Made by a program: the position numbers and the translations under genes
Source of the DNA: Escherichia phage 04922B
Sequence record: OP331230.1
DNA length: 39,427 nucleotides
Direction: 5' to 3' (one strand)
Part shown: one piece after another, positions 1 through 39,427 of the stretch
Position numbering within the stretch: the stretch's first letter is position 1
Layout of the letters: every line of letters begins with the position of its first letter
The notes under the pieces: generated by a model
What the model was told of the DNA's origin: nothing
Databases searched by the model: none
What the model saw: the letters and a program-made list of their open reading frames with translations, nothing else

Positions 1-1029
1 GCTACTATGACTGGTGGACAGCAACTGGGTACTAACCAAGGTAAAGGTCAAAGTGCTGGTGATAAACTGGCGTTGTTCTTGAAGGTATTTGGTGGTGAAG
101 TTCTGACTGCATTCGCTCGTACCTCTGTGACCACTTCTCGACACATGACCCGTTCCATCTCCAGCGGTAAATCCGCTCAGTTCCCTGTACTGGGTCGTAC
201 TCAGGCGGCTTACTTGTCTCCTGGTGAGAACCTCGACGATATTCGTAAAGACATCAAACACACCGAGAAGACCATCACCATTGACGGCCTCCTGACGGCA
301 GACGTTCTGATTTACGATATTGAGGACGCAATGAACCACTATGACGTTCGCTCTGAGTATACCTCTCAGCTTGGAGAATCTCTGGCTATGGCTGCTGATG
401 GTGCAGTTCTGGCTGAGATTGCCGGTCTGTGTAACTTGGTGGGAACCTCTAACGAGAACATTGAGGGCTTAGGCTCTGCAACGGTAATTGAGACTACTCA
501 GGCTAAGACTGCACTTACCGACCAAGTTGCTCTGGGTAAAGAGATTATTGCGGCTCTGACTAAGGCTCGTGCGGCTCTGACCAAGAACTACGTTCCGGCT
601 GCTGACCGTGTGTTCTACTGTGACCCGGATAGCTACTCTGCGATTCTGGCAGCACTGATGCCTAACGCTGCAAACTACGCTGCATTGATTGACCCTGAGA
701 AGGGTTCCATCCGCAACGTTATGGGCTTTGAGGTTGTAGAAGTTCCTCACCTCACTGCTGGCGGTGCTGGCACCTCTCGCTCGGATACCTCTGGTCAGAA
801 GCACGCCTTCCCTGCCACTAAGAGTGGTAACGACAAGGTGGCTAAAGACAACGTTATCGGACTGTTCATGCATCGTTCTGCGGTTGGTACTGTGAAGCTG
901 CGTGACTTGGCTCTGGAACGTGCTCGCCGAGCTAACTTCCAAGCGGACCAGATTATCGCGAAGTACGCAATGGGTCACGGTGGTCTGCGCCCAGAAGCTG
1001 CTGGTGCTGTAGTTTTCAAGGGGGAGTAA
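1..1029 (+). CDS. 10A: Major capsid protein 10A; 5' partial in this linearisation, start codon is at 39425-39427
   Basis: Translation MTGGQQLGTNQGKG...AVVFKGE is near-identical to T7 gp10A as I recall it; reading frame is continuous with the ATG at the window end. Confidence 0.96.
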   Translation, partial: ATMTGGQQLGTNQGKGQSAGDKLALFLKVFGGEVLTAFARTSVTTSRHMTRSISSGKSAQFPVLGRTQAAYLSPGENLDDIRKDIKHTEKTITIDGLLTADVLIYDIEDAMNHYDVRSEYTSQLGESLAMAADGAVLAEIAGLCNLVGTSNENIEGLGSATVIETTQAKTALTDQVALGKEIIAALTKARAALTKNYVPAADRVFYCDPDSYSAILAALMPNAANYAALIDPEKGSIRNVMGFEVVEVPHLTAGGAGTSRSDTSGQKHAFPATKSGNDKVAKDNVIGLFMHRSAVGTVKLRDLALERARRANFQADQIIAKYAMGHGGLRPEAAGAVVFKGE

Positions 1030-1181
1030 TGCTGAAAGTGACCTCAACGGTCGCTGCTAGTACCGAAGAGGTGAGCATTACTTCCGAAGAGAGTCTAACT
1101 CCAGCACAGAAAGCTGCACGTACACGCGCTGCCAACAAAGCCCGAAGGGAAGCAGAGTTGGCTGCTGCCGCTGCTGAGTAA
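1012..1181 (+). other. 10B: Putative -1 frameshift extension giving minor capsid protein 10B
   Basis: The -1 frame after the gttttc motif reads MLKVTSTVAASTEEVSITSEESLTPAQKAARTRAANKARREAELAAAAAE and stops at 1179-1181, matching the T7 10B tail from memory. Confidence 0.6.
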
Positions 1182-1184
1182 TAA

Positions 1185-1232
1185 CTAGCATAACCCCTTG
1201 GGGCCTCTAAACGGGTCTTGAGGGGTTTTTTG
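1185..1232 (+). terminator. T7-RNAP terminator Tphi
   Basis: ctagcataaccccttggggcctctaaacgggtcttgaggggttttttg: GC-rich hairpin plus U-run, matching the Tphi sequence. Confidence 0.93.
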
Positions 1233-1249: not shown

Positions 1250-1840
1250 ATGCGCTCTTACGATATGAACGTTGAGACTGCCGCTGAGTTATCCGCTGTG
1301 AACGACATTCTGGCATCTATCGGAGAACCTCCGGTATCGACGCTGGAAGGTGACTCTAACGCAGACGTAGCGAACGCTCGACGTATTCTCAACAAGATTA
1401 ACCGACAGATTCAGTCTCGTGGCTGGACGTTCAACATTGAGGAAGGCATAACGCTTCTGCCAGATGTTTACTCCAACCTGATTGTATATAGCGATGACTA
1501 CCTGTCACTAATGGCTACCTCTGGTCAGTCAATCTATGTCAACCGTGGTGGCTATGTGTATGACCGAACGAGTCAATCAGACCGCTTTGAGTCCGGTATT
1601 ACCGTGAACATTATTCGTCTCCGCGACTACGATGAGATGCCTGAGTGCTTCCGCTACTGGATTGTCACCAAGGCTTCCCGCCAGTTCAACAACCGATTCT
1701 TTGGGGCACCAGAAGTAGAGGGTGTACTCCAAGAAGAGGAAGATGAGGCTAGACGTCTCTGTATGGAGTACGAAGTGGACTACGGTGGGTACAATATGCT
1801 GGACGGTGATGCATTCACTTCTGGTCTACTGACTCGCTAA
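1250..1840 (+). CDS. 11: Tail tubular protein A (gp11)
   Basis: 196-aa [38 protein letters not shown]..., recognised as T7 gp11; RBS ggaggaa upstream. Confidence 0.95.
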
Positions 1841-39338: not shown

Positions 39339-39361
39339 TTAATACGACTCACTATAGGGAG
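39339..39361 (+). promoter_or_regulatory. T7-RNAP promoter phi10, followed by the gene 10 leader and RBS
   Basis: taatacgactcactatagggagaccacaacggtttccctctagaaat...aaggagacatacatATG; the ATG at 39425-39427 is the gene 10A start, continuing at position 1. Confidence 0.93.
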
Positions 39362-39427
39362 ACCACAACGGTTTCCCTCTAGAAATCATTCTTGTTTAAA
39401 CTTTATTAAGAAGGAGACATACATATG

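Follow-up and report, generated by a model that had tools for sequence, protein, structure and literature searches.

The major capsid gene of Escherichia phage 04922B, gene 10A, differs from its T7 counterpart in two clustered patches. The finding is an ordinary feature of T7-group capsid genes, because the patches are the usual hypervariable loops of the T7-group major capsid protein. Probably, they are solvent-exposed, dispensable loops of the HK97 fold that are under relaxed purifying selection and whose variants are redistributed by homologous recombination among co-infecting phages. The regions concerned are called here VR1 (T7 residues 147-176) and VR2 (T7 residues 260-285, before the conserved C-terminal third of the protein), to which are added the variable stretch of the N-terminal tail (N-tail, T7 residues 17-23) and the last three residues.

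Gene 10A and its surroundings

The window, i.e., the whole stretch of DNA analysed (39,427 nucleotides of sequence record OP331230.1), is a circularly permuted T7-like genome. Its large open reading frames (ORFs) all lie on the plus strand in the order of the T7 genes, and the nearest genomes in a phage collection are 92-96% identical to it across parts of its length; the annotations of these relatives under the match are major capsid, minor capsid, and tail tubular protein A. Gene 10A wraps around to nt 1, from which the record reads gct act atg act ggt gga cag, because the record was cut directly behind the ATG of the gene (Table 1). The joined reading frame is intact and specifies a protein of 343 residues that begins MATMTGGQQ, compared with MASMTGGQQ in T7. 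This protein matches Pfam family PF21703 (Gp10A-like) with 371 bits (cut-off 27) over profile positions 1-279 of 279, and it matches the sequence of PDB entries 2XVR/3J7X with E = 8e-201.

The context is that of T7 gene 10, with a class III promoter and leader upstream, a terminator and gene 11 downstream, and everything on one strand. T7 gp10A and gp10B (NP_041998 and NP_041997; PDB 2XVR, 3IZG, 3J7V-X) are encoded in the same setting, with the phi10 promoter and leader, the Tphi terminator, and the same neighbouring genes. No RNA family was returned when the entire window was scanned against Rfam. The gene-10 leader at 39363-39424 (aaatcattcttgtttaaactttattaagaaggagacatacat) presumably differs at several positions from the leaders of T7 and of the pET vectors, while the promoter is taken to be identical.

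Table 1. Positions of gene 10A, its variable regions, and neighbouring features in the window
Feature	Position (nt)	Strand	Basis or remark
T7-type class III promoter (phi10), taatacgactcactatagggaga	39340-39362	+	Sequence read directly; position compared with T7 phi10
Gene 10A start codon, ATG	39425-39427	+	Preceded by phi10 promoter, leader, and Shine-Dalgarno sequence (aaggag)
Gene 10A remainder, codons 2-343 and stop; HK97-fold major capsid protein	1-1029	+	Homology to T7 gp10A; Pfam
N-terminal tail, third cluster of differences (S3T, M10L, VVA18-20 to QS)	4-66	+	Alignment with T7; family-variable part is T7 17-23
Patch 1 core (VR1a), LVGTS here, VESKY in T7 (148-152)	436-450	+	Adjoins long conserved segment 107-146
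VR1b (T7 161-176), most variable stretch of the family	475-522	+	Differs from T7 at 161, 170, and 172
Patch 2 (VR2, T7 260-285)	772-846	+	Differs from T7 at nine positions, one of them a deletion
Predicted -1 frameshift heptamer for 10B, A GTT TTC (T7: G GTT TTC)	1011-1017	+	Comparison of 66 loci
Variable C-terminal residue, T7 V344G	1021-1023	+	Downstream of the frameshift site
10B extension, 54 residues, -1 frame	1017-1181	+	Homologous to the T7 10B tail
Tphi-like terminator hairpin, then T run	1185-1232	+	Sequence; phage 13a and T7 have a terminator annotated at the corresponding site
ORF of 196 residues at the gene 11 position	1250-1840	+	ORF list; T7 gene order

In GenBank, the product is present as UXY92468.1, 'capsid and scaffold protein [Escherichia phage 04922B]', a protein of 340 residues that starts at the internal Met4. 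This entry lacks the true first residues, M-A-T, because the origin of the record falls right after the gene 10 ATG. An exact look-up of the 343-residue gp10A gave no match, the deposited form being the one of 340 residues that starts at the internal methionine.

An antisense ORF of 192 residues on the minus strand (469-1047) was considered and rejected as a gene. It sits in the codon-aligned antisense frame of gene 10A, which is open for 135-343 codons across relatives and through the entire gene in several of them. A highly expressed gene such as 10A avoids TTA, CTA, and TCA codons, which keeps this frame open, and the ORF is thus an artefact of codon usage; all other large ORFs, moreover, are on the plus strand.

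The sequence features of a predicted T7-type programmed -1 frameshift between 10A and 10B, i.e., N GTT TTC together with an open -1 frame, are present. Among 66 related loci, the heptamer is GGTTTTC in 62 and AGTTTTC in 3, with C as its first base in the remaining one; thus, the first base is not conserved. We assign the shift site to this heptamer following the T7 literature (Condron et al. 1991). The 10B tail has 56 residues in T7 and 54 here; the two can be aligned, and the extension is conserved. In the Przondovirus loci L023 and L082 (Klebsiella phage H5), the -1 frame after GTT TTC is open for 96 residues. This extension shows no sequence relationship to the T7 10B tail and resembles a putative Ig-like (Big_2-type) domain, and a separate 'minor capsid protein' CDS is annotated in phage H5 at this position.

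Clustered differences from T7 gp10A

The T7 reference was taken from NC_001604 and from the sequence of PDB 2XVR/3J7X, and the T7 sequence on which the initial annotation had relied is accurate when checked against both. End to end, the two proteins are 92% identical (343 versus 345 residues). Thus, the early statement that most of 10A is identical to T7 describes the protein well, but the DNA is only 89% identical, with synonymous changes all along the gene. The proteins differ at 27 of the 345 T7 positions, by 25 substitutions and by single-residue deletions of V18 and G277. The positions affected are 3, 10, 18-20, 52, 75, 83, 93, 148-152, 161, 170, 172, 261, 263, 264, 266, 271, 275, 277, 278, 281, and 344.

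Patch 1 (nt 430-468) reads CNLVGTSNENIEG in phage 04922B and CNVESKYNENIEG in T7. Patch 2 (nt 769-852) reads GTSRSDTSGQKHAFPATKSGNDKVAKDN and GTAREGTTGQKHVFPANKGEGNVKVAKDN, respectively, with its differences spanning nt 775-834. Together, these patches make up 12% of the protein and hold 14 of the 27 differing positions. When differences were placed at random 100,000 times, 5 differences within 5 residues were reached 63 times, 9 differences within 21 residues 55 times, and a gap dispersion like that observed 50 times. The clustering in two patches noticed in the initial annotation is therefore real and far beyond chance (about 6 in 10,000 permutations). The description as two patches was incomplete, however; a third cluster in the N-terminal tail (positions 3, 10, and 18-20) had been missed, as had the changes scattered outside the clusters (52, 75, 83, 93, 161, 170, 172, and 344).

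Variable regions of the T7-group capsid protein

An alignment of 122 protein sequences, composed of 120 database homologues, T7, and the window protein, gives a mean column entropy of 0.52 bits. Entropy amounts to 0.8 bits at T7 residues 141-150, 1.7 bits at 161-180, 1.0-1.4 bits at 261-290, and 1.4 bits at 341-345, with 0.6-0.7 bits at residues 1-20. Long stretches, such as T7 residues 31-40, 101-140, and 321-330, have only 0.03-0.18 bits. The two regions that contain the patches occur in 98 and 108 distinct variants among the 122 sequences, almost all close relatives having a version of their own, and indels are concentrated there.

More distant capsids vary at the same places. Gaps relative to the solved capsids of Kp9, E1004, and cyanophage P-SCSP1u fall in the same variable stretches, and the length of VR2 varies in these three and in phage H5. 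The capsids of Przondovirus (Klebsiella phage H5; Kp9, PDB 7Y23) have the same fold with about 80% identity. Relative to T7, the H5 protein has indels in the N-tail, VR1b, and VR2, the last of which carries both a 4-residue insertion and a 4-residue deletion. Alignment with the capsid proteins of other T7-group phages, which the initial annotation had proposed as a check, thus places both patches in the variable, indel-tolerant stretches of the family (about 200 relatives).

Within Teseptimavirus, the N-tail, VR1, VR2, and the last three residues hold almost all of the amino-acid polymorphism of the capsid protein, and the rest is nearly frozen. The changes between T7 and phage 04922B follow this pattern and cluster in the N-tail, VR1, VR2, and the C-terminus. 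The patches are no peculiarity of phage 04922B but belong to the regions in which the whole family usually varies.

The hypervariable regions of the adenovirus hexon are hypervariable surface loops of a capsid protein. The variable regions of gp10A may be likened to them in that short, indel-tolerant loops would carry most of the polymorphism of a conserved shell protein. However, the fold and the virus lineage differ, and any role of the T7-group loops in defining serotypes or in neutralisation would be hypothetical.

Selection on gene 10A

A codon alignment was made of 80 viral-contig loci together with T7 and the window, and Nei-Gojobori estimates were obtained for the 13 sequences of the T7 clade. 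Among these 13 sequences, dN/dS is 1.06 in VR1a (T7 147-152), 0.71 in the variable stretch of the N-tail (T7 17-23), 0.35 in VR1b (T7 161-176), and 0.26 in VR2 (T7 260-285), compared with 0.00-0.03 in the core segments (T7 24-146, 177-259, and 286-342). Constraint on amino-acid change in the variable regions is thus some 10-100 times weaker than in the core. There are 21 codons with a non-synonymous diversity greater than the synonymous diversity of the whole gene (0.246); all of them except that of residue 93 lie in the variable regions. Together, these values show that purifying selection is strongly relaxed in the variable regions. They do not demonstrate positive selection, because no region has a dN/dS clearly above 1 (1.06 in VR1a and 0.26-0.71 in the other variable stretches).

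Diversity at four-fold sites where the amino acid is invariant is also raised around VR1 and VR2, at 0.356 versus 0.189 elsewhere (about 1.9 times). An excess as large arose in 1 of 20,000 site shuffles but in 7 of 156 circular shifts, in a test that used 13 close sequences and regions defined after the amino-acid profile had been seen; the signal is thus modest. Simple relaxation of constraint does not predict raised four-fold diversity, which hints at old alleles maintained by selection.

At the start of the gene, pS is 0.000 at codons 4-16 (nt 7-48) in the 13-sequence T7 clade, compared with 0.246 gene-wide, and four-fold diversity is zero at the 6 usable sites in residues 1-20, which adjoin the hypervariable residues 17-22. 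The lack of synonymous diversity at codons 4-16 suggests a constraint at the mRNA level on the translation-start region of a very highly expressed gene.

Recombination within gene 10A

Different parts of gene 10A have their best DNA matches in different phages. These matches are to the C5/N30 contigs at nt 7-123 (99-100%), the 64795_ec1 contig at nt 394-567 (89-96%), the HZP2 contig at nt 658-786 (95-97%), and the HZ2R8 contig at nt 786-984 (95-99%), and no single relative exceeds 92% DNA identity over the whole gene. Informative sites were submitted to maximum chi-squared tests, which like the other DNA-level analyses rest on 13 close sequences; they place a breakpoint at about nt 502 with L002 and L012 as parents and at about nt 564 with L005 and L012; in each case, none of 2000 permutations reached the observed value. 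Gene 10A is thus a significant recombination mosaic, a component of the patch variation that the initial annotation had left out of its account.

The variable peptides are also shared piecemeal. The patch 1 peptide NLVGTSNENIEG is also present in the 64795_ec1 contig (L005), and the patch 2 peptide AFPATKSGND is common to the contigs of phiA1122 (L009) and HZ2R8 (L012). The other patch 2 peptide, SRSDTSGQ, was not seen among about 200 relatives. Teseptimavirus capsid proteins (those of C5/N30, 64795_ec1, HZ2R8, HZP2, phiA1122, and JB01) are 93-96% identical to that of phage 04922B and share segments and loop peptides with it, but no single one of these relatives matches gene 10A throughout. 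Loop variants have been moved by recombination inside gene 10, and phage 04922B therefore carries one combination of the circulating alleles. This combination consists of a VR1a of the 64795_ec1 type and a second half of VR2 of the HZ2R8/phiA1122 type.

Location of the variable regions in the capsid

An AlphaFold2 model built from a 39-sequence alignment has a mean pLDDT of 57, with residues 1-130 and 292-326 below 50. Its best Foldseek match is the T7 capsid entry 3J7W (probability 1.0), with a TM score of 0.47 that reflects the poor overall quality of the model. Only the secondary structure of the A-domain was used, where the block-mean pLDDT is 56-93. In the model, patch 1 follows the end of a long helix and contains only a 3-residue helical turn (DSSP; pLDDT 56-87 around the patches), and patch 2 lies within a stretch of about 37 residues that has neither helix nor strand and is placed between two beta strands. 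Both patches are thus predicted to occupy stretches of the A-domain that have no regular secondary structure.

The initial annotation regarded clustered changes of this kind as typical of surface-exposed regions. This interpretation is supported in part. The patches do coincide with indel-tolerant, irregular, and weakly constrained stretches, and their position on the outer face of the capsid is inferred. The further suggestion of the initial annotation, that the patches may reflect variation in serotype or host interaction, would be a hypothesis.

Covariation between the N-tail and the A-domain loops was sought by mutual information with APC correction in 189 sequences. The region means are about zero, with hints only at the residue pairs 146-279 and 146-280. 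The idea that the N-tail and the A-domain loops evolve together, as a hairpin and its pocket might, was dropped, the top covarying pairs being mostly clade-defining substitutions. The refolded N-terminal hairpin reportedly docks into a pocket of a neighbouring capsomer, a result attributed to Guo et al. in 2014. When the T7 capsid matures, the N-terminal tail of gp10 (23 residues) passes from its inner to its outer surface (PMC7695174); this tail, which the initial annotation did not list, is the one variable region placed on the outside in the literature consulted. Where phage H5 was compared with T7 by cryo-EM, the two capsids differed in structure at the A-loop, A-pocket, E-loop, and N-hairpin (PMC11481518).

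Why the loops vary

In the explanation we prefer, VR1 and VR2 are two hypervariable stretches in the A-domain of gp10A, with VR2 in a long irregular loop. Purifying selection is relaxed there and indels are tolerated, as the dN/dS values and the family alignment show, and the mosaic structure of the gene shows that variants are moved between related phages inside gene 10. The loops would be exposed to solvent and would add little to the fold or to the lattice, so that their variation may alter the surface chemistry and antigenicity of the capsid and not adsorption. An explanation that overlaps with this one and differs only in the driver is diversifying or balancing selection, in which capsid-sensing defences (e.g., PifA of the F plasmid) or the antibodies of animal hosts favour rare loop alleles; if rare alleles are favoured, old allele classes would therefore be kept and exchanged as cassettes. 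We consider such a driver rather unlikely. A dN/dS near 1 in VR1a, the 21 codons above the gene-wide synonymous diversity, the many distinct allele combinations with clear recombination, and the raised four-fold diversity around VR1 and VR2, which alleles of long standing would bring about in their vicinity, would all fit it; however, no region clearly exceeds a dN/dS of 1, and the circular-shift control of the diversity peak is marginal (7 of 156). Two papers state that T7 gp10 together with gp1.2 influences PifA exclusion (PMC10286901; BASEL preprint), and capsid-sensing defences are thus plausible in principle, but the BASEL work credits PifA sensitivity mainly to the gp1.2 allele. The fuller proposal, that VR1, VR2, and the N-tail are long-lived allelic cassettes under frequency-dependent selection by capsid-sensing immunity or antibodies and reassorted by recombination, strikes us as doubtful.

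A role in host recognition or adsorption, with the patches varying according to host range, is very improbable. Phages of the T7 group adsorb by means of the tail and its fibres (gp11, gp12, and gp17; in T7, the fibre protein gp17), and the shell is not known to take part, which makes it an unlikely receptor-binding structure. Relatives that infect Escherichia, Shigella, Yersinia, Serratia, and Cedecea do carry different loop alleles, which apart from the variability itself is all that favours such a role, but identical loop peptides are found in coliphages and in a Yersinia phage (L009 and L012), and the authors of the H5 study see no correlation of capsid-loop differences with infectivity or specificity (PMC11481518). 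It is more improbable still, to the point of being negligible, that the patches arise from an inaccurate T7 sequence in the initial annotation, from sequencing errors, or from a chimeric assembly. In favour of an artefact are the circular permutation of the record, its cut within gene 10, and the mosaic nature of the gene. However, comparison with the true T7 protein gives the same differences, the frame is unbroken, the peptides of the patches turn up again in independent phage genomes, and GenBank lists the identical 340-residue protein for an isolate; moreover, the segments of the mosaic match different phages at 95-100% identity, which is what natural recombination between T7-like phages would yield. 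Relaxed constraint on probably exposed loops, combined with recombination, remains the preferred explanation.

Implications

The window encodes an ordinary T7-group capsid gene, which differs from T7 where every member of the group differs. The analysis shows in which parts of gp10A change is tolerated (T7 residues 17-23, 147-176, 260-285, and 343-345), which is useful for capsid engineering or display, and it flags the truncated gene-10 annotation in the public record. If the loops were indeed maintained as allelic cassettes, they might determine how sensitive a phage is to capsid-sensing defences, or its antigenic type. In that case, the capsid shell, and not the tail fibre alone, would be a target in the arms race between phages of the T7 group and their hosts.
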